Shown: positions 1 through 63,579 of the stretch, in pieces
Layout: every line of letters begins with the position of its first letter
Numbering within the stretch: the stretch's first letter is position 1
Assembly: GCF_030684315.1 (NCBI RefSeq)
Contig: NC_081387.1
Location: forward strand, 10,994,822 to 11,058,821
DNA: 64,000 nt
Direction: 5' to 3'
From: Stegostoma tigrinum
Lineage: Eukaryota
Made by a program: the position numbers and the translations under genes
The notes under the pieces: model-generated
What the model was told of the DNA's origin: nothing
Database searches by the model: none
What the model saw: only the letters and a program-made list of their open reading frames with translations

Positions 1-144
1 ACCCACTCTCTTGTGGACCGAGAGGAGCAGAGCGCTGTGTTGGAGGTGGAAGGAAGACTACAGGTTGGCTGTGCACCCTTGCAACCGGTGGATTTTAATG
101 CTGGCTTCGGCCTAACGCTGGTTCAGGGGAGCAGCCAACCTGCA

Positions 145-1612
145 ATGATGGCTGCGGCAAGTGCTCGTGCCCCAGGTCAGGGGGTCCGGAACACCATCCG
201 TGTTTCCGTTAAGAAGGTGGATGAAAGTGCACCTGTGGACCGCACATTCTTCATGAAGAGGGTCCTGTTGGACTGTTGCGGGTTCGCTGCTGCGGGCATT
301 TACTGCCTGCAGGATTTCCCCGGAGGAGGTTTTAACGATGTAACCTTCAGGAGTGCCAAGCTTTGCGAGCACTTCCTGGAGGGTTTCAAGGAGAAAGGAG
401 GTGAGGGCCCCCTCTCTGTACTGACCGCTGTCCCTTTGCTCGTGATGCCAGTGCAGAGGAGCTGTATGGTGACTGTACACATGAACAACACGCATGTGCC
501 AGCAGTTGATGTCCTGATCTTCCTTGGAAGGTACGCGAAGGTGGAAGGGGACCTAACCAACATCATGGACCCCTTCGGGGTCTGGACCAGTAAGAGGCAG
601 GTCAAGGTGACGCTGAGGATGGGGGCGGATGGGAACATTGTACACCCACTGTCCAGCTTCACGATCGGCGGGAGCAAGAGCTACCTGACCTACACAGGGC
701 AACCTAAAGTCTGTCATGCCTGTGGTAGGTCAGGTCACGTGGCGGCCAACTGCAAAGCCACCATCGGCAGGAACTGCAGGGAGGAGGGACACCTTGCAAA
801 GGATTGCCCACAAGAAAAAAAGCTGCAAACTTTGCGGGGAAGTGGGCCACCTCTATAGGACATGCCCACGGCGGGGGACCACCTACGCCCAGGTCGCCAG
901 CAGGGGCAATGCGGGGCCAGCCACCCCGGAGAAGAGGAAGGCACCAGGGCCCTGCAAGGACCCCACTAATGTGCAGGAGGGCCAGGTTGTGCAGGAGGGC
1001 CCAGCCCCGCAGGATGGGCCTGAGGCCAGCAAAGCGCCCCTGCAGGCTCCGATCCCCCCCGACAACGCGGAGTCGATGGAGGCAGTGACAGGCGACCCAG
1101 GGGAGTGGACGACGGTCTGGAAAAGCGAGGAGGAAGGCGTGTCAGCGGGCCCAGGCACCACAACCATCAGGCCGGAAGAGGCAGCTACAGGGGGGCTATA
1201 AGAGCTCCTCTGACGAGGGAGATTCAGAGAGGGCCCGGCCAAAGCAGAAGCTGAAGATCTCAAGGGAGAAGGAAAGCAGCACCTGGCTTCCAGGTGACGG
1301 GAGGCATCCTGAGGCTCCCTCCGACACCCAGTCACGTGCCGCTGGGGCCCTGGAGGGGCCCCGGAACTTCCAGGCGGGAAGGAGGAAACAGCACATCCCC
1401 AGCCTGACCCAGAGCCGGACTCTCCTGCCTCCGTACCCGCGACGGGGGGATGCCACCCGGAAGGCAGCATGGACGGTTTCCTGAGCCTGGAGATCGTCCA
1501 GCAGTTAGCCCGGGCAATGGGCATGAAGGGACAGATGGAGGGGCTGGACCTTGGACTTGGGGAGGGTACTGCGGTCACTGCCCACAATGGGAGTACGAGT
1601 TGCGAGCATTAA
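145..1612 (+). pseudogene. Tx1 ORF1 (gag-like zinc-knuckle protein of the ZCCHC3-like type), frameshifted
   Basis: ATG at 145 (MMAAASARAPG). Knuckles CHACGRSGHVAANC, GRNCREEGHLAKDC and, after a frameshift at the A-run near 815-821, CKLCGEVGHLYRTC. A Pro/Glu-rich tail can be followed through two more frameshifts to TAA at 1610-1612. Confidence 0.85.
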
Positions 1613-4600
1613 TGTGCGCAGCGTCAAGTCCACCACAAGATGTGTATCCACGTTGGCCTACCCGACCACTGTCAAGGCCTCCCGTTTCTGCAGGAGTACG
1701 GAATACTGCGCCTCAGCAGGTACGGGAAATGGTCCGGTGCCTGGACCTGTGGGCCTTCGATCTGGTCGGGTGTAATGACTGTCGCTTCTCGGGCCTGGCT
1801 CTTCTGCTGCGGGGGCGCAACTTCACCATCTCTCAAGTTCAGGAGGTGGTGGGGGGGCACCTCCTAGTGGCTGATGTCACCTACAGGAACGCTTCCCTGA
1901 GGCTGATCAATGTGTATGCCCCAGCGGTACGGAGTGAGCGGTTGGCCGTCCTGCGGCGGCTTCCACCCCTGCTGGCTACGTCCAGGCCGGTCATCCTAGG
2001 CGGAGACTTCAACTGCATCATCGATGCAGACGGAAGATCTGGTGTGGGGAGAGCGGGTGGGGGGAGTCAACTGGATGTCACGTCCAGATTCCTGATGGGC
2101 ATGGTGAAGGACGCCAAGCTGCTCGACATCTTCAGCACCCCTGCAGATGGAGCGCAGCGGAGGTGCACCTGGTCGCGGCCAGACGGGTCTATTCGCTCAA
2201 GGACAGACTTCCTGTTTGTGTCACGGGCGTTCTCGGTCAGGTCCACCGGCGTCGAGCCGGTGTTCTTCACTGACCACTGCCTCCTGCTGGCCGACTGTCA
2301 CTCACAGGATGACCAGCCGGCCGACAAGGGGACATGGAAGCTCAACACGACTCTGTTGACCCCAGAGAACATCAAGGAGCTTAAGAGGGAGTATGCCGGT
2401 TGGAGAACCGTGAAACCCCTCTTTGAGTCTCCGGGTGACTGGTGGGAGATGGTGAAGGAGAACATCAAGAGGTTCTTTGTCCTCAAGGGTGCTCGGAAGG
2501 CGAGAGAGAGGCGGGAAAAGTTGTCGCGAGTCCAGAAAAGGGTGCAGAACCTGCTCCTTCTGCAGCTAATGGGGGTCAATGTCACAGAGGACCTCCGTGA
2601 GGTGAGGAGCCAGCAAGCCTCGCTCTTCGCCGCGGAGGCCTCCAGGATAATCCTCCGGTCCAGGTTCCGCTCCGTGGAGCAGGACGAGACGTGCTCACGT
2701 TTCTTCTTTCAGAAGGTGCACAAAGAGTGCTCTGTGCTTAGCCGGCTGAAGGAGGACAACGGCTCAGTGACGTCGGCTCGGCCCGACATTTTGAGGATCA
2801 GCAGATCCTTCTATGCCGGACTGTACGACACGAAGCCCACAGACAGCACGGCCTCCGAGTCGTTCCTATCGTCTATCACGGAGGTCTTGGACGTCGGCAC
2901 GAGGGAGTGGCTGGACCGGCCGATATCTCTGGATGAGCTGACCGGAGCCCTCAAGTCCTTGGAGAGGAATAAGACTCCCGGGAGCGATGGCTTACCGGTC
3001 GAGCTGTATTCCGCTCTGTGGGACCTGGTCGGCCAGGACCTGCTGGAGGTGTACGATAGTGCGCTTCAGGCAGGGGAAATGTGCAAGTCCATCTGCCTCA
3101 GCAGCCTGGACCAGGAGAAGGCCTTCGACAGAGTCTCTCATGCTTACATGAGGGACGTCCTCTCCAAATTGGGGCTTGGGGAGGGCATCCGCAATTGAAT
3201 CCGGCTGCTCGACACCAACATCGTTAACACAGTCTCGATCTCTCTCCTGCCTTGTTCGTGTGCTGTGTGGAGCCCTTCGCTGCATCCATCAGGAAGGACA
3301 TGGGCCTGAAGGGCGTGACTATCCCAGGCAGCAGAGGCCTTCAGGTCAAGACCTCCCTGTACATGGATGACGTCGCCATCTTCTGCACCGATCGTCGGTC
3401 GGTGAGTAGGCTGTTGGACATCTGCGGCCAGTTTGAACTAGCCTCAGGTGCCAAAGTCAATAGGGGTAAGAGCGAGGTCATGTTCTTCAGGAACTGGGAC
3501 GACCGCTCCTTCATCCCCTTCACCGTCAGGACAGACTACCTGAAGGTGCTGGGTGTTTGGTTTGGTGGAGCTGGGGCGTGCACTAAGACTTGGGAGGAGC
3601 GTATTACCAAACTGAAGCAGAAGCTGGGCAGGTGGACGCTCCGGTCCCTCTACATCGCGGGTAAGAACCTGGTTGTCAGGTGCGAGGGGCTTTCGGTACT
3701 GTTGTATGTGGTGCAGGCCTGGCCTATTCCCTGGACCTGCGCCACTGTGGTCACCCGGGCCATCTTCCACTTCATTTGGGGGTCGGGGATGGACCGGGTC
3801 CGCAGGGACACCATGTGCAAAGACCTGGGAAATGGGGGAAAGGGCGTACCGAACGCCACCCTCGCCCTGATGGCTACCTTTGTGTGTGGCTGCATCAAGC
3901 TGAGAGTAGATCCTCAGTACGCAAACACCAAGTGTCACTACTTACTGAGGTTCTACCTGTTCCCCGTGTTGCAAAGGATGGGCCTAGCCTCGTTGCCGCA
4001 GAATCTCCGTGTAGTTGGACCATCCCGTACCACCTGTCCTTCATGGAGAAATTTTTGAAGGGAAACACCTTTGACCACAAGGCCGTCAGGCAGTGGTCAG
4101 CACGTAGTATCCTCGAGACCCTTCGGGAAAAGGAGAGGGTGGATCCCGTCATGTGGTTCCCCATGCAGACTGCCAAAGTCATTTGGCAGAATGCCTCATC
4201 ACCAGAACTTTCAAACAAGCACAAGGACATTGCTTGGCTGGTGGTGAGAGGGGTTCTGCCGGTGAGATCCTTTATGCATGCCCGGAATCTCTGCGCCACT
4301 GCACGCTGCCCTCGAGGCGGCTGCGGGGGGGATGAGACTGTCGATTACCTCCTTCTGGGGTGTGCCTATGCGCAGGAGGTCTGGAGGGGGATGCAGTGGT
4401 ATTTGTCGAGGTTCATCCCGAGCAGTTCCGTGACGCGGGACTCCGTGGTCTACAGGCTGTTTCCCAGGACGAACACCGAGACCAACATCAACTGCGCCTG
4501 GAGGACCATCAATGCGGTGAAAGATGCTCTTTGGCCTGCCCGCAACTTTTTGGTATGCCAGCTGAAAGAACTGACCCCAACCGAGTGTTGCAGACTGGCG

Positions 4601-4690
4601 CACTCCAAGGTCCAGGACTACGTGCTGAGGGACGCGCTAAAGCTTGGGGCAGCCGCCGCCAAGGCGCAGTGGGGAAAGACCACCGTATGA
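1587..4690 (+). pseudogene. Tx1 ORF2 (APE endonuclease plus reverse transcriptase), frameshifted, with two internal deletions
   Basis: Starts MGVRVASINVR at 1587. Endonuclease motifs FLQE, LINVYAP, ILGGDFN, TDHC. RT motifs KTPGSDGLP, LDQEKAFDRV, YMDD near 3360 and YLKVLGV. C-terminal CPRGGCGGDETVDYLLLGC. Pieced together from ORFs 1551, 1640, 1450, 3252 and 3680. Confidence 0.92.
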
Positions 4691-7066
4691 AACCCCTCGT
4701 CCAGAATAGAAAAAAGGGCCCTATCTGGTAACTGGGCCCAGCTGGCGCCTTCCCCAACTGGTCAGGGGGCCAACGGGGACTGTGCGGGGTGACAACTGCC
4801 GGGGTATTTTCTTTGCTTTGTGTTTTTTCTGCTTTGTTTGTTTTTTTTCCTTTAGTTGGTGTACGTACCCCCTGGGTAACCCGGAGCGGCTTTCATGACT
4901 GGGTAGGTGTATAAATATGTTTTATTTTTTGTACATCTTATGAATAAAGTATATTTTTTCAAATAAAAAAAGTGACAAAACATCTGAAAACTAACCTTCC
5001 AGCTCAGCGAGCAAACACATCCATAAAAATAATTACTTTAGTAATCTGATGTTCAACCATTCTGCTGAATTGAAGCTTATAGTTAATGTTTCACTGTTGT
5101 GTGGCTCTATTTGGTTTCACTTTTGAAAGAAAAATTGGCATGGAATGAGGAACAGATTGAAGACACTATGCTATTGTTTTAGCGATACAACACCAGGCCA
5201 AAGGGCCAGCCTTGTTCTCATTGATCATTTGTGAGAAAATGCAAACCACAAGGAAGAATATGAAAGAACACATCCTCAAAGCTTGTCAGCTCTTTATCAG
5301 CAACAAGTATTACTGCCTTGAAACAAAACCATGCAGATCTTAATCGGCTGTACTTTGCAAAAAATGTTTTAGAAGTGAGGCAAAGCTGTTGAACTAAACA
5401 CAATTTTTTGACATTGTATTTGAGTTAACTTTGTAACAATGTGTGTGGAAGTTTGTAATACTGTAAATAGGTATCAGACGTGATTATAGGTTAACTGAAT
5501 GTATCAGACATTTGACTAATTCATTCCATTTAAATACACTGTATAGCAATTTGTATATGTTTGAAAGTTGTGATATTCATTATCCAACATTATGAATATC
5601 GAATATACAAGCAATAGTTTAACTACATATTTTGTCATGAAAGTAATATGAACTCTATCCATGCATTCTAACACTGCAGTGCCGAAAACACTTCTCTTAA
5701 CAAGTGGCTTCGACGAAAGAACATGAGGTCAATGATTTGATGTGCAGTGAACATTGAGAACAATTAAGATAATGACCTCATTGTGGCCTTGCAACATTTG
5801 ACCCTCTGCCAGCACACGTTTCCCTTTGCAAACCAAATGCATAAAGAACAAGTCAAACTCTTTTAGCAAAACAATAACAATGAAATTTTAATGAATGGGA
5901 TGAGCCTATGGATAATTGACAACTTCAAAAAACTGGAGAAAGTTAGAGGTGCCAGAAGTTGCTACCTATCTCAATTCAAATCCCTCATTAGATCTGGTGA
6001 TTCCCTTAAATCAATAAACAATGAGCACCATCTCACCTCACTTAATCACAATGTAATGATGCAAGTAATAATGCTCTGTTTTGTGGCTTGGAAAGTGTTG
6101 ACCATTTCTGACAGAATTTCTCACTGGCAGAGGCAAGCATTAAGTTTAAAACTGAAGTTATCCCATCAAGTAAGTGTATACCTGGCTTTTCCAGATTCTG
6201 CACCTCCACCCCAAGTGATATTTATTCTCCACTGTTTTTAGGGACACGGACAGAAGCTGCAAAGGAGTCATGATAAAGTCTACATCCTCCTGTTTTACCA
6301 CAATGTTGGATGCTCAACTTGGGCTGATCCATGTTGTGGGACATTAAAGTGATAATCCTTATAGCAGGGGATAGGTAACTACTCTCTGTTAGGATCATGA
6401 AAGGTTGACTCTTCTGGTGCTCCAGTGTAATGTGCTAAATCTTCCTGACCTGAACTCTCAGCAGGAAAGAGCTAAGCTGTATTTATTTGGACTCTGACAT
6501 TACAGGCACGACTCCCAGGTGTTTTAAATCCAGCTCACGTACGAACGCTCATGCTATCATTAATAAATATGCAGGAGAAAAAAAACTGGATTAAACTTTG
6601 AAATATAAACTGTAACTTGGTATAAGGGTGCAAATCAAAAGGGAATCTTTTTTTTTCTTTCATTGATTATTTTATAGAACCATCTATTTATTTTCCAGCC
6701 ATTCTCAGTTTAAAAAAAAGAAACAGCAGTAATGTAATTTCAATGGGTGCTTGCGTATGTCTGGAAAAGATTTTGTGAATAGTGAAACCAGTGCGTGTAG
6801 TTTATCTTAAATATTTATACATGCTTATTATGTTCAACAAATAAATGCATTCTTGGTTAATATCATTTTCCCCGAGACCATTTTATTCACTTTCAAAAGA
6901 GAGATAACGGTTACTGGACTCAAAGGGACAAAGGAGGGTTTGGAAAGTAAAGAGATACAGGAGCATTTTTATAGAAAGTCTTGATATGAAAATTGACAGG
7001 CTTGGGGTGGGGAATGTTGGTAAATTCTTGGGAAAGCAGACGTTGGCAAATAACTAGAATTGGAAT

Positions 7067-7892
7067 CAGAGATAATGGGAACTGCAGATTCTAGACAATC
7101 CGAGATAGCAAAGTGTGGAGCTGGATGAACACAGCAGGCCAAGCAACATCTTAGGAGCACAAAAGCTGATGTTTCGGGCTTAGACCCTTCATCAGAAAAG
7201 AGGGAGGGGGAGGGTTCTGAAATAAATAGGAAAAGACGGGGAGGCAGATCGAAGATGGATAATGGAGAAGATAGGTGGAGAGGAGACAGACAGTTCAAAG
7301 AGGCGGGGATGGAGCCAGTACAGGTGATGTAGGTGTGGAGTAAGTGAGGAAATAGGTTGGTTCAGGGAGGACAGGCAGGTCAAAGAGGTGGGATGAGGTT
7401 AGTAGGTAGGAAGTGGAGGTACAGCTTGTGGAGGGAGGAGGGAAGAGATGAGTGGAAGAACAGCTTCCCCTCACTGCATCCCAAAACCAGCCCAGCTTGT
7501 CCCCGCCTCCCTAATCTGTTGTTCTCCTCACCTATCCCCTCCTCCCACCTCAAACTGCACCCCCACCTCCTACCTACTAAACTCATCCTGTCCCCTTGAC
7601 CTGTCCGTCCTCCCTGGACTGACCTATCCCCTCCCTTACTCCCCGCCCACACTCCATCCCCACGTCTTTGACTGGTGTGCCTCCTCTCCACCTATCTTCT
7701 CCTGTATCCATCTTTGATCTGCACCCCCTCCCCTATTTATTTCAGAACCCTCTCCCCCTCCCCCTCCCCCTTTTCTGGTGAAGGGTCTAGGCCAGAAACA
7801 TCAGCTTTCCTGCTCCTAAGATGCAGTTTGGCCTGCTGTATTCATCCAGCCCCACACTTTGTTAACCAGAATGCCGGTGCTGCACACTTTGT
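7067..7892. mobile_element. Penelope-like element 3' fragment with inverted arms and a 16-bp TSD
   Basis: Minus arm about 7067-7450 and plus arm about 7460-7865 are diverged reverse complements. TAACTAGAATTGGAAT occurs at 7051-7066 and 7893-7908. Confidence 0.85.
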
Positions 7893-15310: not shown

Positions 15311-16209
15311 TTAATTGATTAAATGAATAAAGGAAGTGACAGGATATTTCACAGCACTCTTGAACTGCTCTCGAAACTTAGACTGAGTTATCCCATAAAT
15401 AAATGTGTTTGTGCAACAACTTAATTCCACCAACATAATCCCAACTTCTCTAAAAATGTAAGTAGAATCACTGAAATATTTGGTATTAATCCCTGTAATT
15501 ATACAGAATAAGAAGTTGGTAGTGTACAAAAGCCACAGAAGTATAAAGTTGCCAGATATGGTGAAGAGTAAAATCACAGACTTCCTTCTGTTCTCCATTT
15601 CTGGGTCACTGCAATTCTCTTCTTTGTTCTTACCCCTTAGAGCCTTGCGCACTTGACTGACTATCATAATATATCTGACTGTAAACACATTGAACAATAG
15701 AATTAAAGCACATGGGAGTAATGGGGTTAAAATCTTATCAAACCAATCAAATGCTAACCATGCTGGGTCAGTATAATAGCTTCTCTTTAAATAACAGAAC
15801 CAAGGAACATTGTTAATTACCTCTCCAGGTTCAAAAGTGAAATAAGTTGATATATTTTTTAAACTGAGTACAACACACGTTGTAGAAAGAACTACAGATG
15901 CCGTTTTTTTGGTGCAATATTTAATTCTGAGCTTCTGGCAACAGATGGCCACCATTCGATCCAAGGAGAAAGTTACAGTGAACCATACAGAACTTTCTCC
16001 AGAAGTATGGAGTAGGACCATAACAACACTACACACAGGTGTGATTTCTAGGAAGGATCCTGGGAAATAATAGGAGAAGATGCGTAGTACGATGACCGCA
16101 GTGAAAATGAACAGCAGATCTGCCATTGCCATGGCCACTAGATAGCATGTAGTACACATGGAGAGATCAGACTTTCCCCGGGACAGGATCACAATTGCCA
16201 CTAAATTAA
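15311..16209 (-). CDS. Class A GPCR, GPR139/GPR142-like, gene 1, exon 2 (CDS = complement join 18673..18736 and 15311..16209; 320 aa)
   Basis: Open frame with hydrophobic helices and motifs YLVAMAMADL (TM2), SVWFTVTFSLDRMVAIC (TM3), LTPLLP (TM5), FILLW (TM6), CCTNTFIY (TM7) and KFREQF (helix 8). Acceptor ttttctttcttccag precedes TT AAT TTA GTG at 16209. Confidence 0.93.
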
Positions 16210-17384
16210 CTGGAAGAAAGAAAAGGCAGAGCAGACTGTAACTTAGTGACCATCTTTCTCATTGTCTTAACCCATCAAGATCAATCCAAAGTGAGAGGGC
16301 AGATCACAAGAAATGAATTCTACTGTGTTTCTGATTAACATAATAACAATGAAATATCTCAGAAGATTGTCATTGGAAAAACTTATTATTTTCAGTCTAG
16401 CTTAGTGTGAAGTGCTGTATTTTGGTTGAAAAAATATATAATAAAGGAGTATCAAATTAGACACGATCCTATTGAATGGCAGATCTTGCTCAGTGGAACT
16501 TCTCTTCCTTTTTCTTGTTGTGCAATTGCTTTATGACATTTTCAAACATGCTTTGCAAAATAAGAATCCAAATCAGTTCACTGGAACATATTAGCAATTA
16601 TTCAAAATCTAATTGTAGGTTATCTTGACAATAAACATGGAAATTAACTGAAGCTCTTTTGTGAACAAATGTCACTATACTATATGTTATGATAGTATAT
16701 AAAACTTAATTCATGACATAAGTTTTTTGTCTACTTGTTGAAAAGATGATTTTGATGAAATAAAGAAGCTGCTAACATTTTGAATGGTGTGGTGCTACAG
16801 CGGAGATAGATCTACATTATGTGCTGTCATTAACTCCTTACTAATACTTTAATTGTAGCCTTACATCTAATGCCTACATTATGAAATCTCAATATGTTTG
16901 TTCATCAGTTATCAGGATTCACTCTTCACATTTCATTGAGCTGAGAACAAAGTTTGGTGCAGGTTAAAAGCATGAAAGTGTGCATTCATAAATAAGGACA
17001 TTCATAAGTTTAATCATATTCCAAATGTGTTTTTAAAATACTTGCAATCAAATACTTAGTCTTTGCCATAGACAGAAAAAAACAAAATTCGCTTTAATGA
17101 TCACATGTTCAAAGCAATTCAATGTGAGATATGGAATGGCCAGTGATTTGGCATCATGACATTTTGATTAACCAAAGCCATTATCCAATGAGTTTGAGCA
17201 CAGTAATCATCTATACCCCCATTCTGTACCCTGTCAGTAAATATTTATCTTATGTCTATGTTTGAACAGGTCAATAAGAAAGCAGAGCAAAACTTATATA
17301 TTTCACTTAAGGTATCAGAAACAAACATCACCATTTAAAAGTGAATATTTTCCTCTCTGCTTCTGAATAAATTTAGAATACATA

Positions 17385-33546: not shown

Positions 33547-34388
33547 GTGAGTTACACTATTTTGTTGCACCATAATTTCAAATTGGGCACAACCCTCTGA
33601 CTTTTGACTGCTCAACCTATTACACTGACCTCCAACTTATCACGCATTACTGAGCAATGCCCACCATTAAGACTGCCTTCTCTCTTCCCAACTGAAACGT
33701 TTTTCTAAAGTCTCATTCTTTATGTTTCCTTCTCCCCAAAACTTTCAATCCTTGACATTTTCACATGGCCCTTAAGCTCTTTATTTTATCACTTTAGCTC
33801 CTTATTCCATTCTCATTCAGTCTCAGTGTTATCTGTTTCTGTTCTGAACATTTCTAACCTTGACATTTACCAGTTATCATGTTACAGTTGCATTATCTTC
33901 TTTTCTCTGTTTTTGATTGTTACTATTGATGTAATCTCGATTCTTATCTTTATATTCTAGAGTTATTCTGTTATACGTCAACATATCTTAGGCCTTATTT
34001 CTTCTCTGACTACCAACTAATTAAACAGTTGTTTTCTCTCGCAGTTTTTTTTTCTTATCTGCATTGTATTGTTATATTCTATTGTTTAATCTGGTTATTT
34101 TTGTATCCCTTCCTCGTTTCAATTGTTGGTGTCTCCTATATTTATAAAACTAATATCCTTCGTGTTATCCCACTTTAGCTGATGTGTTCAATTGATAGGT
34201 CAAAAGAAAATGAATCCTTAGATTCATTCATTAGACATTGCAATATCAATGAGAAAATCATTAGCACAAACTTCAGAAGATGATAGATTAATACAAGTGT
34301 TGAATGTTAACCTAGCGTTACCACAGTTAATGTTTACTGTTGATTCCAGCTATTTATTGACTGTTTTTATTTTGATTCTTTTCCACAG

Positions 34389-35314
34389 TTAACTTGATCA
34401 CAATTGTGATCCTGTATAAGGGAAAATGTGGTCTATCCAAATGTGTAACTCAATACCAAGTGGCGATGGCGACAGCAGACCTCATGGTGATCATTTGTAA
34501 TGTGATAATACACAGGATAGTTGCACTATATCATTGGAATTTTTTACCCATTTACACTTCTGTGTGCAGACTCATTCTATTCCTCTCTCCAACTGCCGTG
34601 GACGTTTCTGTTTGGTTTACAGTTGCCTTTACCTTTGATCGATTTGTAGCCATTTGTTGGCAGAAGCTGAAAACAAAATATTGTACTGACAAAACTGCTA
34701 CTCGGGTTATCATTCTACTGCATCTTTTCTTTTGCATAAAGAACATTCCATGGGCTATCTTGCATGTTTCTCAATTAAAAATTGACAATATACCACGAGG
34801 TTGCATAGAATCACCTGCAATTTACATTCAGTTTGCAGGGATGGCATTTTCTTGGTTAGATCAGCTGTTAACCCCAATTCTTCCATTCTTTTTGATGTTA
34901 ACCTTTAACATCCTCACAGTTAGACATATTTTAATGGCCAGTCATGCTCGAAGGAACCTTTGGATCCATAAGAGGGGGGAGAAGGATGAGGACCCTGAAA
35001 TGAAAAGTCGGAGAAGGTCCATTGTTTTACTTTTTGCAATATCTGTCAATTTCCTCCTATTGTGGATTATAACAATTGCATATTTCTTTGATTTTCAAAT
35101 TAAAAGCTATTTTAATCGCAGATTTCTAATGAACAAATTGGAAAATTTCAAAAATGTGGGCATCATGCTACAGCTTCTGAGCTCCTGCACAAACACTGCG
35201 ATTTATGTAGTGACCCAGAGTCGGTTCAGAGAGGAGCTGTTGAATATCCTGAAATGTCGCTTTGCTCTTGTTAGAAAACAGACTGATGAAAAAAGACGCT
35301 GCAATGAAAACTGA
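34389..35314 (+). CDS. Class A GPCR, GPR139/GPR142-like, gene 2, exon 2 (CDS = join 33477..33546 and 34389..35314; 331 aa)
   Basis: Acceptor ttcttttccacag precedes TT AAC TTG. Motifs VAMATADL, SVWFTVAFTFDRFVAIC, LTPILP, DPEMKSRRRSIVLLFAIS, FLLLW, SCTNTAIY and RFREEL. No internal stops. Confidence 0.93.
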
Positions 35315-37016
35315 ACCGCCTCGCTCAGTCATGCAAACCACTTTCACTGAAAAATTATTAATTACATTTACTAAAGGCTCTCAGCTGCCAGATTAATAAT
35401 GTTTAACTTAAATTTAATTGTTGCTTCATTCAAGTATCAATTTAATGTAACCCACCAAAAGAAAATAGCTGTGCTGAGCACAGAAATATTGTCAAAACAT
35501 GTTCCTTAACAAAGATACTTTTACAATCAAATTCTCAGAGAAAGTACTCTGGTCTGAGCATTGTGAAATAATCTGGATTTTCTTCCCACTAGACTGGTGA
35601 GCCTTGCTACTGCATATGTGGAGCTAATTTTCACGCAAAAATATTTCTCTTCTAGCAAAAATTATATTGTTCTTACCTGTTGATGTTATTCCAGCTGCTC
35701 TCTCAACTATTAACACTTTTTTTAAGGTGCATGCTAATAATTGCTAAAACTGTGAAATTTCACAGTTGTATAAAATCGCTTGCCACAGTCACTGTGCCTA
35801 ACATTTTAAAATAGAGGAGTCAAAGTATCTGGTAGAAGTCCTAAAGAAATAAATGAATTCAGCAGGTTACGGATGGTTTGGTTGAGCGTGTATGGCTGAG
35901 TAAGGAAGATCACAAGAGAAGGTTGATCGGTCCTTCATGTTTGTTTGATTAAGGCTGGTCTGAAGCTTCACGCGATGGTAGCAAATTTTGCCAACTTTCC
36001 CTAATGCATGTAGATGTCTAGTAGTTAGCAAACTCACATGTGAAATGATCAATTGACATCCATTATTTGTCACATCCAAATCTCTGTCACATTTTAGTGA
36101 GGAACTCTTTCGCAGTTTCACTCCTGAAAGTTCCGACTCCAGTTTTTAGAAATGATTTCACTCTCTCATCCGCCTTCATATCATGGATACATGGAGAATA
36201 AAAAAACCCAAGAGGGGATCGGAAGGAAAGTTCAAAATAACCAAGGGGCTGGTCAGAGGGGCTAAGGAGTAACTCATCCCACTTGTAAAAGGATCAAGGG
36301 CAAAAGACTTTTGGTTTCAAATGCTTTCCAAAAGATGAATGTGGGATGTCAGAAAAAACATTTCCACGCAACGCATCACTCAGAACATGAACACACTACC
36401 TCGGCTTGCAGTGGAGGTAGGTTCGACAGTCAGTCAAAAGGGCATTGGCTGATTATTTAAATATAAACAATTGTCAGTGATAAGAGGAAAGCATGAGTTT
36501 GGTGCCAAGGAATGATGCTGATCCTGAGAGCTGAGGGAGGCACAATGGTCTGAACAGCCTCCTTCCGTGCCAATCCACTTTGTGGTCATTACTTACAAGA
36601 TGTGTTCACCCAATTCCCTTAACATTAGTCAATGTAAATAGCCACCTATATTTACCTTATCTAACCTTGTTACAATCTTGAACACTACCATCAAATTTTC
36701 CCTGTGACTTTAATAACATTGCCTTTCGTGTCCTCAGCTCCATCCATGCACTATCTGTTTCATCCCTCCTGACACTGCAATAATTGGAGCCTCGTTAACT
36801 TTACAATAAATAGAGGCTGCACTTGCAGCAAGGTCAATCCCTTTATTATAACATGTGGTACACAGAACTACCCACATTTCTCCAAGTGTCACCCAAACAA
36901 GACTTAGTGTGGCGGCATTGTTTTATTCCAGGCCTTCAGATATGAAGTCTTTTATTTTCCATTGGACTGCTTTAATTATTATCTTTGCCTCTGAAAGACA
37001 CTTTAATAATTCATAT

Positions 37017-37236
37017 CAGAGATAATGGGAACTGCAGATGCTGGTGAATTCCAAGATAATAAAATGTGAGGCTGGATGAACACAGCAGGCCAAGCAGCAT
37101 CTCAGGAGCACAAAAGCTGACGTTTCGGGCCTAGACCCTCATCTCTGATGAAGGGTCTAGGCCCGAAACGTCAGCTTTTGTGCTCCTGAGATGCTGCTTG
37201 GCCTGCTGTGTTCATCCAGCCTCACATTTTATTATC
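37017..37236. mobile_element. Young Penelope-like insertion made only of two inverted pLTRs; 14-bp TSD
   Basis: Arms at about 37052-37139 and 37152-37238 are near-perfect reverse complements. TTAATAATTCATAT occurs at 37003-37016 and 37237-37250. Confidence 0.9.
37143..37175 (+). ncRNA. Minimal hammerhead ribozyme motif in the Penelope pLTR
   Basis: CUGAUGA (37145-37151), an extra A, stem II GGGU-cuag-GCCC, GAAA (37165-37168), loopless palindromic stem III ACGU, and GUC with predicted cleavage after 37172. Stem I is very short. Confidence 0.65.
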
Positions 37237-37453
37237 TTAATAATTCATATAATTGGACTTCAATTTTCTTGAATTATCATTAAATTATTAAAGTGTCTTA
37301 TAAAAGGCAAAGATAATAATTAAAGCAGTCCAATGGAAAAAAATGACTTTATATGTGTGGGATAGGGGGCTAGGACAAGGGGTGAGGGTCCCCAAGTGGA
37401 AAGCTCGGGAACCCTGCAGACACTTATTTATGTCTCCTCCCCAGCCTCACCTT

Positions 37454-58794: not shown

Positions 58795-59355
58795 TAATTC
58801 ATTTGTGGGATGAGGGATCACTGACTAGGCCAGCATTTATTGCCCATCTCAGAGGGCAGTTAAGAGTCAAGTACATTGCTGTGGGTCTGGAGTCAGATGT
58901 AGGCTAGGCCAGATAAGGATAGCAGTTTCCTTCCCGAAAGAACCTTAGTGAAACAGATGATTTTTTCTGACAATGGACAATGGATTAATGGTCATCATTA
59001 GACTCTCTTAGTTCCAGATTTTAATTGAATTCCAATTCCACTATCTGCTGTGGCAGGATTCAAACCCAGGTCCCCGGAATTTCACAGATAACACGGTGTG
59101 AAGCTGGATGAACACAGCAGGTCAAGCAGCATCAGAGGAGCTGGAAAGCTTGACATTTCAGGTCAGGACCCTTCTTCTTCCCTTTTTCTGAAGAAGGGTC
59201 CCGACCCAAAACGTCAAGCTTTCCTGCTCCTCTGATGCTGCTAGGCCCACTGTGTTCATCCAGCTTCACACAGTGTTACCTCAGATTCTCCAGCATCGGC
59301 AGTTCCTACTGTCTCCCCAGAACATCACCTGGGTCTCTGGATTAACAGTCACTAG
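58795..59355 (-). mobile_element. tRNA-derived SINE (second family) interrupted by a Penelope-like insertion
   Basis: Reverse complement of the 50755 SINE, split at about 59080-59313. Confidence 0.85.
59080..59313. mobile_element. Penelope-like inverted pLTR pair
   Basis: Arms at about 59085-59177 and 59187-59313. Degenerate TSD tccccggaa (59071-59079) and tccccagaa (59314-59322). Confidence 0.85.
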
Positions 59356-60585
59356 GAACAATAATATGGGATCTTGAGAAATGGTGGATACTTGAATGTT
59401 AAACTGAAGTATGCAGTAGCCACTTGACATATGAAACTAGCTTAAAACGCAAAAATCATTGGGGAATGGTTCTTGTTGAGACAGACATACTAAAAATGAA
59501 CTAAAGATGACTGAATTTTAAAAGAGCTAGTGAAATCTGGATGTTTGCCTGAAGGCTATATGCAGAGTTAGAGGGTTGCTCATAATTTTGAAATAAACTT
59601 GCCAAAAGTAATTACGAAACTTTGATATTATAGTGCATCTGCGCAATCACTAAGGTCTCACCTGCAGGCTGTTAATCCATCATCCTAAATGTGTCATGGC
59701 TTGTAAAGAATTTAGCAAAATCTTATTAGAACATTTGATTTGATGAAATCTCTGAACTAATTAAGGGAGTGATTTGTATCTTTATAAAGTTGTTATTTTG
59801 AAGAGTTATATATTTGATCCCAGGCTTCTAAAACTGAACGAGAATAGGAGAAAAAAGTGTTTTTTTTCTCTTTTTTGCAGAAAACCCAAAGTTGTAGGTT
59901 TTGCACTTAACTGAGTTTTAAGCTACAGAATTGTTATCGATATTATCTTTTATTTGAAAAGATGATGTGTTGGGAGTACTTTAAATAAGTTTGTGGTTCT
60001 TGTGGAGACTCCAGATGATTCTCTGCTTTTGGTACTTTGTAGAATTTTAAAATTCAACTGTTTTTACCACAAATCAACACATATTGTTTATTTTTACATA
60101 ATTATTTGCGAATGAAACTACAAAGCATTTTCTTTCTGGCTGTGGTCATGAGATGAGCTTGGATTGTCTACAGAATTGAGGGAAGAGCATTTGTAGTGAT
60201 GTGTTCTCCTTCAATTCCTGTCCAATCACTTTTTGCATTTGTTAGGGATCCTTCCTTGACTTTATTCCTGTCCTCAAATAAGTCTAATCAGGGACTCTAA
60301 CCTAATATTGGAGAGTGAGAGATAAAATAGACAGGTCAGGGACATGAGTATTAAAGACTTTAAATAAATCAGGGACTTAAATCCGGCCAGACTGGCATTG
60401 TTTGCAGTGATTTCCAAATTAGCCTGTGAAAAACGACTCTCGGGATTATCGCGATATATTGTAACGAAGCTGTTAAGGTTTTAGAATGTTGTGAAGGTTT
60501 GTGGAAGTCGATAGTTTGCTGTTCGTTGACAGATGGTTGATCAGTGAAAGTTTTGGGTCGAGATTATAAAAGGAGATTGTTTAAG

Positions 60586-61011
60586 ATGTGTAATAGTATA
60601 GATAAGATGGACGATCCGTCTTCTTCACTGGTGAAACTATGTGAATAGTATCCGGATAAATCTGAAAGCCTGCGTGAAGTTTCTGGCGCCTTAAATAAAA
60701 AATTAGGTGATGGACATTGGCCACTAGGCAGCCTCAACAGTAATTAATTCGTTAAATCAGCCCAGCGATGAAACATGGGCTCGAAAAAAGAAATGAAAAA
60801 ATTGATTGGACTGTGGCGACAATTTTGCGACGAAAGCCACAAACAATTGGTATTAAATTCATGGCTGGAGCCTGCCACCAAATTGGGAATTGAACTGACT
60901 GACGATGGTACCATAAAATTAATTGAGGTCCTCAAAAACAAATGTACTCAACTCAAATGTCAACAGGAACAAAAAGTGATTGGTGTTCCTATTGGCTCCT
61001 CGCACCCCTAA
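60586..61011 (+). pseudogene. Matrix-like ORF upstream of gag (142 codons, 3 in-frame stops)
   Basis: MCNSIDKMDDPSSSLVKLCE*YPDKSESLREVSGALNKKLGDGHWPLG...MKKLIGLWRQF..., colinear with the gag N-terminus at 61321. Confidence 0.6.
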
Positions 61012-61320
61012 GCAGAAGTTGCGTTTAAAAAGCTCGGAGGTTTGAGTCCCCCAGTGGCAGGAAAAGTGAAAAAAAAATCTGGAGGTTCGCGATAAAAAAT
61101 ATATAAGTCTGGAGGAATTAGTATAAGACTGGTAAAGTAGAATAAGTATTCGGCTATAAGTATAGGATAAGTACAGTGTCTGTCTGTCTCAAACTCTCTG
61201 CCTTAGACCGGTTTTTAAGAGGGAAATCCCCGCACGAAGGTCGGGACTGTGAAGTGGGTGTTGAGACCAAGGACACTGGTGTAGTAGATAGAAATAAGCA
61301 ACAATGTAAAAGCGCTAAAA

Positions 61321-61545
61321 ATTGGTTAAACCTCGGATAAATCCAGGACTGGTGTTCCTCTACATCGAATGTGCCGAGGTAATTCTGAGGATAGGAAGCG
61401 AATCAGACGTCTGTCGGCACGCCTTAATAATAAATTAGGGAATGAAATTTGGCCAATAGGGGGAACCTGAGATGTAGATAAATACATAAAAGTGAAAGAA
61501 GCAATTTGAAAATGCAATTCAGGGACAAAATTGAAGAACTTTAAT
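61321..61545 (+). pseudogene. gag: gag remnant (matrix region)
   Basis: IG*TSDKSRTGVPLHRMCRGNSEDRKRIRRLSARLNNKLGNEIWPIGGT*DVDK. att ggt taa is two substitutions from MGQ, and WPxxGT is typical of class I matrix. Confidence 0.65.
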
Positions 61546-62400
61546 ATCCATGTAGAGAAAAACTGCTGAGGAAATAACGAACAAATCTAAACTGGCGAGT
61601 TGGGAGAATAATGCATGTCGAAGAGGGATTAGAGTATGTGATTATGAGGGAAGCTTTAAATCGTGGGATGCATTGAAGGAGCAGTATGGGGAGTAAAGCA
61701 GAACAGGAAATGCGGAATAAAGAATTAGGAGTAAAACACCAGACTGAATTACCGTACGGAAATAAAAAGGAGGTGCCTCCTGACATATCTGTCTTGCTGA
61801 TGTTGTTCCAAAGTAATGACATAAATGAGTAAGACAAGCAGGACTGGAGAAGGAAGTAGGCTACTTAAAATAAAGTGTTACATGCAATGCAGATTATGTG
61901 GTACATTAGAACATGCAGAGATTCTGCCAATACAGATCTGATGAATTGGTTTAAACTCCCTGTTAACAATGCAGAGATTTAGCTGGGTTAGAAGTGCCTT
62001 ATAATACAGTATCAAGGGGCTATTTCCTAGCAGAAGTTGTTTTAAAAGAATACAGTAACCCTCCTTTGGTTGCCCACGTCGGGGTACTGGAGGAATACAG
62101 TTCCTTCATGTAGTCATTTTCAGATTAAACATCAGTAATGCATTTGTGCTGTTGTCTGGCACACCACATTTTAGTTACAGCCATAAGATAAAGAATACAA
62201 ACCCACGGCTTGTACAGACCATATGTCCTGTCGTACAAGGCTTAAAACTAAACAGAGAAACAGGAGACTGAATACAGAACAGACTGTGGACAAAAGGAGG
62301 GAGGGCAGGATTCTTCTAAAACTCACAGGGGAGGCCTTAAAAAAAAGCCTCCTCAGGTACTCCCATCCAGAATTCCCTGTATGTTAAAACCCTTGTCCAG

Positions 62401-63579
62401 GCAATCCTCTTCCCTAAACAATTGGCTATTATCAAATGCGCTGCCCATGCCTCCTGTATTTATTTAGGGTAATGCTTGGGTTGATCAGGCTGCCACAGAT
62501 CAAACTTTTATTGTGCCCTCTATGAGCAAGCAGATCATAAATTGCTTACCTCCTTCCAACATCTCAAGCATGCCAGATATTGTCACTGTTCAGTGTTTAC
62601 AGGGGGTCGCCCCTGACTCTGAAAAACAATTATGGAAGGCGCGTGGGTGTTGGCGCTCTGCGTCAAAAGGCCTCTGGGTCATTCCACTTGGCCAAGTGTG
62701 TATACCTGATGCTTTGTTATCAATGCTTATTGACTGGTCAAGGAGTGCGGTGCGTAACAGGAAACACTCTTGCCAGGTAGTCTATTTAAGAGCATTAGCT
62801 TGATTTTATTGAATTGCCACGTGTACATTGCTATAGGTATTGTCTTGTTACTGTTGATGTATTTAGTAGAAGAATCGAGGCCTTCCCAACCACTCATAAT
62901 GAAGCCTCGACGGTGGTAAAATTACTACTGACAGAAATCATACCAAGATTCGGGGTACCTCGACAGATTAGTTCAGACAATGGCCTCCACTTTATTGGGG
63001 ATATTGACGATGAAATATGTGCTCATTTTGGGATCTGCCGCCAACTTCATTGTGCGTATCACCCTCAGACTGCGGGGCTTGTAGAACGCTGTAACCAAAC
63101 TTAAAAAAACTAAACTTGCCAAATTGACTTCTGTGACCAGTCTCTCCTGGGTTCAATTGTTGCCTCTGGTCTTATTCCACCTGCGTTGCACTCCCATGGG
63201 CAAAACTCGCTTGTCCCCAGCCGAAATCATTTACTGTTGAGCTTTCCGGGGATGATGCCCTTTCCCCTGTTCATTTCTACCACGTGACTGAAGACATCCT
63301 CCTGTATTCTTACTTCAACTAAAATTTTGTGAGGTCTTCACTCCCAGTCCTTGCTGCCTATGAGAAGCTCCCCTCCCTGACACTGTTCCAACTGTTGAAC
63401 CCAGCTCCTTCGTTCTCATCAAGAATTGGATGCGCCGCGGCCTCCAACCTCGATGGGAAGTCCCCTTCCAGGTTCCCCTCACCACCCCTACTGCTGCTAA
63501 GGTCGCTGGGCGCTCCGCCTGGGTTCACTTCCATCATTGCAATGTCATCGGTCTAGCCCCTTCCGAAGCGGGGAGATGA
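62401..63579 (+). pseudogene. pol: pol remnant: RNase H C-terminus plus integrase
   Basis: AILFPKQLAIIKCAAH and GNAWVDQAA; LDFIELP...VDVFSRRIEAFP...SSDNG-(D-X35-E)-YHPQTAGLVERCNQT; SWVQLLPLVL, LSPAEIIY; PRWEVPFQVPLTTPTAAKVAGRSAWVH. Protease and RT were not found. Confidence 0.9.

Follow-up and report, generated by a model that had tools for sequence, protein, structure and literature searches.

Background

The closest described counterpart of the locus reported here is recKoRV, in which the 5' LTR, gag leader and a truncated gag of KoRV are joined to a PhER element; in the available text of the two reports, this recombinant is present at many loci, is not mobile by itself, and has its breakpoints no further than about 1.5 kb from the genome ends (PMC5696478, PMC6112702). 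Reading frames that stand 5' of gag have also been described. In walleye dermal sarcoma virus (WDSV), 7 bp separate the end of orf C from gag; its product is characterised as mitochondrial and as inducing apoptosis, and the accessible part of the report describes no second leader (PMC3185748). In bat betaretroviral ERVs, the ORFs that precede gag begin in the LTR and end 3-26 nt before it, and that report, in its accessible part, does not describe them as copies of the matrix domain (MA) (PMC3621094).

Here we describe an endogenous retroviral element, found in a 64,000-nucleotide stretch of DNA from Stegostoma tigrinum (the window, analysed at its full length), that carries two MAs, each behind a leader. 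It resembles recKoRV, as far as the available accounts of the latter go, in that one retrovirus appears to have contributed its 5' leader and a shortened start of gag, joined to another element. Whereas recKoRV1 takes the 3' part of PhER, the shark element keeps its partner from the partner's own primer site and gag start, which yields two leaders and two MAs. In those same accounts the breakpoints, LTRs and helper dependence of recKoRV are demonstrated, while for the shark element we infer them. Like WDSV orf C, the upstream frame of the shark element stands 5' of gag in a retrovirus of fish; compared by description with the accessible account of orf C, it differs in being an MA homolog and in standing 309 bp and a second leader ahead of gag. 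The bat betaretroviral ERVs, in the part of their report available, likewise have an extra frame ahead of gag. A layout with two leaders and two MAs was not found in the openly accessible papers searched.

Organisation of the element and the window

The element lies on the + strand and begins with leader 1 (60309..60585), whose PBS-like TGGAG start is also the start of the multi-copy DNA. It is followed by the upstream MA, of type 1 (60586..61011, with MA likeness to about 60957), and by a stretch (60958..61079) that takes in the final codons of the upstream frame, is covered by contigs from other copies, and would contain the junction between two lineages. Leader 2 (61080..61320) then precedes the second MA, of type 2, which forms the start of gag (61321..61693) and is matched by the family HMM in two pieces, with 70 and 38 bits. 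Behind this MA, a likely remnant of the Gag linker (61737..61841) is suggested by a weak match to the tail of the homolog P0005, and a likely RNase H end (62341..62490) by PDB matches at E 0.6-1.3, six of seven of which are to RNase H of the MLV/XMRV type. Next, in pieces, come an integrase core and a C-terminal domain of the MLV type (62799..63543; Pfam rve, E 2.4e-14; MLVIN_C, E 1.7e-12). At 61888-61914 a C-x2-C-x4-H pattern was seen by eye, which had no significant match and is possibly the remnant of a zinc knuckle.

About 1 kb lies between the start of the second MA and the likely RNase H end. There was no Pfam match for capsid, protease or reverse transcriptase between the second MA and RNase H, and the capsid of P0015, a homologous full Gag, did not match the element; with these parts undetected, this copy would be internally deleted. 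A contig over 62067-62445 may lie wholly within pol, and we do not claim a deletion from capsid to reverse transcriptase for other copies. No LTR, tRNA or Rfam family was found near the element, and there was no 5' LTR upstream at the locus: the DNA at 59600-60308 is single-copy right up to the first PBS-like motif, so that no 5' LTR can be recognised in this copy. In other copies the sequence at this place is a different one (contig records 2 and 18). The MLVIN_C domain, the MLV-like RNase H matches and a weak Gag_p30 match in P0015 point to a probable class I (gamma/epsilon-like) affinity of the element.

Elsewhere in the window, intronless frames of rhodopsin-family GPCRs are present at 15311-16258 on the - strand and 34376-35314 on the + strand (7tm_1, E 4e-17 and 2e-16, respectively). 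A GC-rich LINE-like element with a ZCCHC3-type ORF1 and an endonuclease, which we take to be Tx1-like, occupies 1-4700. Self-complementary repeats with long inverted ends at 7106-7864, 36937-37357 and 59086-59281 form a MITE-like family, of which the window contains many fragments.

Likeness of the two frames

Both frames, their motifs and the 26-residue C-to-W spacing were found where the initial annotation had placed them, with the upstream frame starting at 60586 and the second at 61321, 735 bp apart and in the same frame. The likeness claimed for the pair was also confirmed, and it reaches further than claimed. By BLASTP 12/34 residues are identical (E 1e-6), and tblastn follows the likeness beyond the frame break of the second MA into a second piece, at 61535-61684 in another frame. 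When an X is placed at the break, the alignment runs across it with 31/103 columns identical and a score of 111 (z 18), which none of 20,000 shuffles reached (maximum 68); the score of the 61535-61684 piece on its own was reached in 1/20,000 shuffles. The identity between the two MA frames is 0.43/0.60/0.38 at the three codon positions, and different codons are used at 20 of the 29 identical residues. With the second codon positions the most alike and the codons different, the two frames diverged as working proteins, a divergence that fits two Gags of different viruses and a gene with its paralogue equally. The old split that had been proposed for them is supported. We also considered, and rejected, a third remnant of MA at 60985-61089 (tblastn E 0.27), which the HMM did not support.

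In this copy both MA frames are dead. The upstream frame, which had been described as ending after 142 codons, is not open over that length: codons 21, 54 and 62 are already stops, codon 142 is the fourth, and codon 170 the one after that. The second frame is interrupted by four stops and, near 61531-61534, by a break of frame. The MG myristoylation signal is absent from the start of both window frames, so that, for the upstream ORF with an MG start that the initial annotation had envisaged, this copy offers three internal stops and no MG. Where the start of a homolog is complete, it reads MGN or MGQ.

Matrix identity

Scanning 1.84 billion proteins with an HMM returned 11 homologs; three matches came from a profile search, which added P0015. 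Homologs were found by these two methods only, since word-based protein searches with the two window frames yielded no match (0/11 candidates for one frame and 0/3 for the other). The homologs with a named source come from Scyliorhinus torazame and Rhinoraja longicauda. The upstream frame matches an HMM built from 11 non-window homologs with 100.7 bits over profile positions 1-123, and both window frames match the family HMM, which bears out by profile the homology of the two peptides that the initial annotation had assumed. When the DNA context of the homologs was sought in viral and metagenome contigs, none was obtained apart from one unrelated weak locus (L001).

Neither the two frames nor 8 homologs were assigned to an MA family by searches of Pfam and of PDB sequences, and the identity of the family was approached through its place in Gag and its fold. 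P0015 is a Gag of 566 aa, consisting of an MA domain at 1-128, a PPPY motif, a weak Gag_p30 match (E 0.021) and zf-CCHC (E 1.1e-6), and the Atlas features of its residues 1-128 lead to Gag_p17/p10/MA (0.92). For the model of P0002 residues 1-127 (pLDDT 88.7), retroviral MAs are six of the top seven among 48,161 chains, the first being RSV MA with Z 7.9, which is under 8 and modest alone (rmsd 2.4, 82 aligned), and MoMLV MA having Z 7.7 (rmsd 3.3, 77 aligned). Over residues about 7-95 the model is alike to the MAs of RSV, MoMLV, MPMV, MMTV and FIV (Z 5.3-7.9). The family differs from known orthoretroviral MAs in that no Pfam MA family matches it by sequence, and in that the solved MA structures do not cover its conserved ~30-residue extension beyond the ~95-residue core. 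In alignment A4 this extension consists of a long helix, a short hairpin and a helix. Foldseek against BFVD and PDB returned nothing at E 0.001, and two MA entries appeared only at E 3.9 and 6.3. The model of the upstream frame itself (X at the stops, pLDDT 68.5) matches RSV MA with Z 6.0 (rmsd 2.7, 80 aligned), a score tied with those of tyrosine-recombinase N-domains (Z 6.1 and 5.8). Since the place in Gag and the Atlas features agree with the modest fold match, the MA call is supported, and with it the claim that both frames are matrix domains: a homolog, P0015, opens a full Gag with this domain and the model of another, P0002, folds like the MA of RSV and MLV.

Two groups of matrix domains

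The upstream MA is 51% identical to P0013 and 45% to P0001, and 28-29% identical to its neighbour; the second MA is 62% identical to P0003 and groups with the full Gag P0015. In the tree, which is small and unrooted (11 rows), the upstream MA falls in the type-1 group (100/99) and the second MA with P0003 (96/91); it does not include P0007, P0010 and P0011, as short or atypical sequences, or P0004, P0012 and P0014, as near-copies. By these sequence comparisons the two MAs come from separate groups and are not sisters. Forcing them into one clade is 52.6 log-likelihood units worse (AU p 3.4e-5), and this rules out a recent tandem duplication. What the tree leaves would be either a recombination between lineages or a duplication that predated the spread of both groups.

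The type-1 relatives run past the MA into a linker and a proline-rich stretch, with the motifs PSAP and PPEY in P0001 and YPPL in P0002, and the Atlas places residues 130-302 of P0001 closest to clusters of Gag (0.92), which serves as no more than a lead. The post-MA tails of six homologs did not match the DNA behind the upstream MA (best 48/1000 shuffles), and in this respect the description of the upstream MA as standing without the rest of Gag behind it was correct. Behind the second MA, the tail of P0005 gave its weak match (5/1000 shuffles, one of 12 tests). Neither capsid nor nucleocapsid was found in type-1 proteins (0/9), and the only full Gag found is of type 2. P0001 ends at 302 aa and P0002 at 280 aa; the source contigs of P0002 and P0013 are 998 and 610 nt, which is too short for a Gag. 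P0001 (XP_072335647.1, Scyliorhinus torazame) consists of MA, PSAP and PPEY and ends where the start of a capsid would be expected. It may be either a truncated Gag or a capsid-less protein of MA and late domains, possibly expressed.

Two leaders

Each MA is preceded by a leader of similar length (277 and 241 nt) that starts with TGGAG, at 60309 and 61080, respectively. Leaders 1 and 2 are reciprocal best matches among the 195 TGGAG sites in the window, and their score was equalled in 2/5000 anchored and 3/500 whole-leader shuffles. The unanchored local alignment of the leaders was only marginal (21/500 shuffles), and as the anchors were chosen after it, outside support is needed. Where the first anchor lies, the multi-copy DNA begins; the second anchor falls on a threefold step in depth. 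The start of leader 2 agrees with the tRNA-Gln1 PBS, whose sequence is taken from the primers given in the available text of PMC1592299, at 9/9 positions; the rest of the 18-mer is imperfect, and the 9-mer occurs once in the window. Both PBS-like motifs are imperfect, the first more so. Folding of the leaders was in neither case better than in shuffles (z 1.22 and -0.70).

As leader and MA are repeated together, the unit that is repeated is the front end of a retrovirus and not the MA alone. What separates the two frames is thus a leader-like 241 nt with a PBS-like start, in place of a single leader with an ORF close to gag, a description that is not final given the imperfect motif. The initial annotation had named an LTR or PBS between the copies as the mark of two separate insertions; of these, a PBS-like motif does lie between the MAs, in imperfect form, and no LTR was found.

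Other copies of the element

Other copies were followed in contigs from three public runs with the same species label (two samples), aligned at 80% likeness; summed contig depth is a rough measure and gives no copy number. A bisulfite run (X5), of which just 246 reads aligned, does not enter the figures. The flank has single-copy depth to about 60300. At about 60300-60314 the depth in run X1 rises from about 25 to 500-650, and contigs from other copies align from 60314. Relative to the flank, the depth across the three runs is 25-26 at the upstream MA, 80-94 at leader 2, 44-56 at the second MA and 23-26 at the integrase, leader 2 being about three times deeper than the upstream MA. At 61074 the depth is 5-8 times that of the flank, and there are indel variants in the junction region (40 of 521 differences were listed). 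Record 20 spans 61036-61295 across this region, and contigs that join 61015 to 61133 and 61017 to 61132 have a gap of about 115 bp, from the end of the upstream frame into leader 2. Among the contigs listed, none spans both MAs. A contig that joins 60659 to 61420 was considered as a deletion and is read instead as a mis-laying between the paralogous MAs.

The alignments of contigs 3 and 4 begin at 61094 and 61107, respectively, and continue into the second MA; ahead of them stand 166 and 230 letters that do not align, which would be expected if lineage 2 also occurred without the upstream MA. The tandem is probably common to several copies, though not the sole form. Across 61070-62980 the depth is in general greater than over the upstream MA or over the integrase/env part on the 3' side, and this could reflect a recKoRV-like sandwich, in which both ends come from one lineage.

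Discussion

We think it fairly probable that the element is a recombinant, in which the leader and gag start of one lineage were joined to a second lineage, and that the product then spread, likely with a helper virus. The two units of leader and MA come from two distinct groups of cartilaginous-fish class I-like retroviruses, and recombination is the likeliest way in which they were joined. The likely route is a template switch in reverse transcription between co-packaged RNAs of the two lineages, where minus-strand synthesis on lineage 2 would arrive at the region of that lineage's primer site and carry on within the start of gag of lineage 1. Such a switch would place ahead of lineage 2 the primer site of lineage 1, its leader and the opening 370-420 nt of its gag, with the joint within about 120 nt upstream of the lineage 2 primer site. 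The upstream MA would then be a cut-off gag start, kept as an RNA signal or a passenger and not as a dedicated accessory gene, and the recombinant would have been copied to several loci. By analogy with MLV, the captured stretch would carry a packaging signal, and its length is about that of the extended packaging region of MLV, which could explain the retention of the captured piece. Because gag 2 stands behind another frame and a second leader, spread with a helper virus is likely.

That the parts come from two distinct lineages is supported by the tree and the AU test, and an ancient duplication would give the same tree. Parents without the junction may exist, as the excess of depth and the other upstream DNA would suggest for type 2, and the Gag-like tails in other species, in which no capsid was seen, for type 1. 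The junction may be present at several loci, as the depth of its region and the indel variants would suggest; no breakpoint or microhomology was located. Against a recombinant origin stands the depth of the upstream MA (about 26 times the flank), which equals that of the integrase (23-26 times) and also fits a regular gene of the family. The type-1 proteins count against it as well, none of the nine reaching a capsid.

Both of these points can be argued for a free MA, where an old duplication, or a capture that was kept, would have given a replicating lineage a stand-alone myristoylated matrix protein encoded upstream of gag. Type 1 would in that case be an accessory gene across cartilaginous fish, a capsid-less module for membrane binding and budding. 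We regard the free protein as unlikely, and its extension to a gene of cartilaginous fish as similarly doubtful. The divergence of the two MAs under protein constraint is as one would expect of such a gene, as are the ends of P0001 and P0002 at 302 and 280 aa, and ORFs upstream of gag have their precedents in WDSV and bat betaretroviruses. A recognisable second leader with a PBS-like motif nevertheless lies in between, and its persistence would be unexpected while the MA diverged to 30%. The linker and late-domain motifs of the type-1 relatives are, moreover, missing here, and the tail is not conserved. As for the relatives themselves, the end of P0001 resembles the capsid start of P0015 by eye, a likeness that is not significant, and the contigs of P0002 and P0013 could not have held a Gag. 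With the MAs in separate groups, and leader plus MA as the repeated unit, the proposal of the initial annotation that a free MA paralogue served as an accessory protein like WDSV orf C is improbable and not the best reading; it retains some weight because no upstream-type homolog reaches the capsid.

The two leaders with PBS-like starts could also be accounted for by separate insertions, if a type-2 provirus had landed in or beside a type-1 provirus, the LTR and the rest of gag 1 had been deleted, and the block had been copied as DNA by segmental duplication or gene conversion. Other large deletions, and the absence of a 5' LTR, in this copy are in keeping with such a history. It would, however, need a deletion endpoint no more than about 120 nt away from the second primer site, and the flank is single-copy to about 60300 whereas the junction has 5-8 times that depth, with indels by which the other copies differ. 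Since other copies cover the junction region, two chance insertions at one locus are not the best reading, and we consider this course of events quite unlikely. A recent duplication of leader and MA within one element would explain their tandem position, same frame and similar leaders, but a mutual identity of 28-29%, against 51% and 62% to outside homologs, speaks against it, and it is rejected under the tree model (AU p 3.4e-5) and highly improbable.

Conclusions

The family to which both MAs belong is a matrix family of cartilaginous-fish retroviruses, missed by Pfam and with the fold of orthoretroviral MA. If the upstream MA were after all an accessory protein, it would represent a new kind of retroviral gene, derived from a Gag domain, and would offer a natural test of what a free MA can do. 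If the element is a recombinant, as we favour, it would be a fish-side parallel to recKoRV, where lineages only ~30% alike in their MA would have recombined in one host and the product would have spread.
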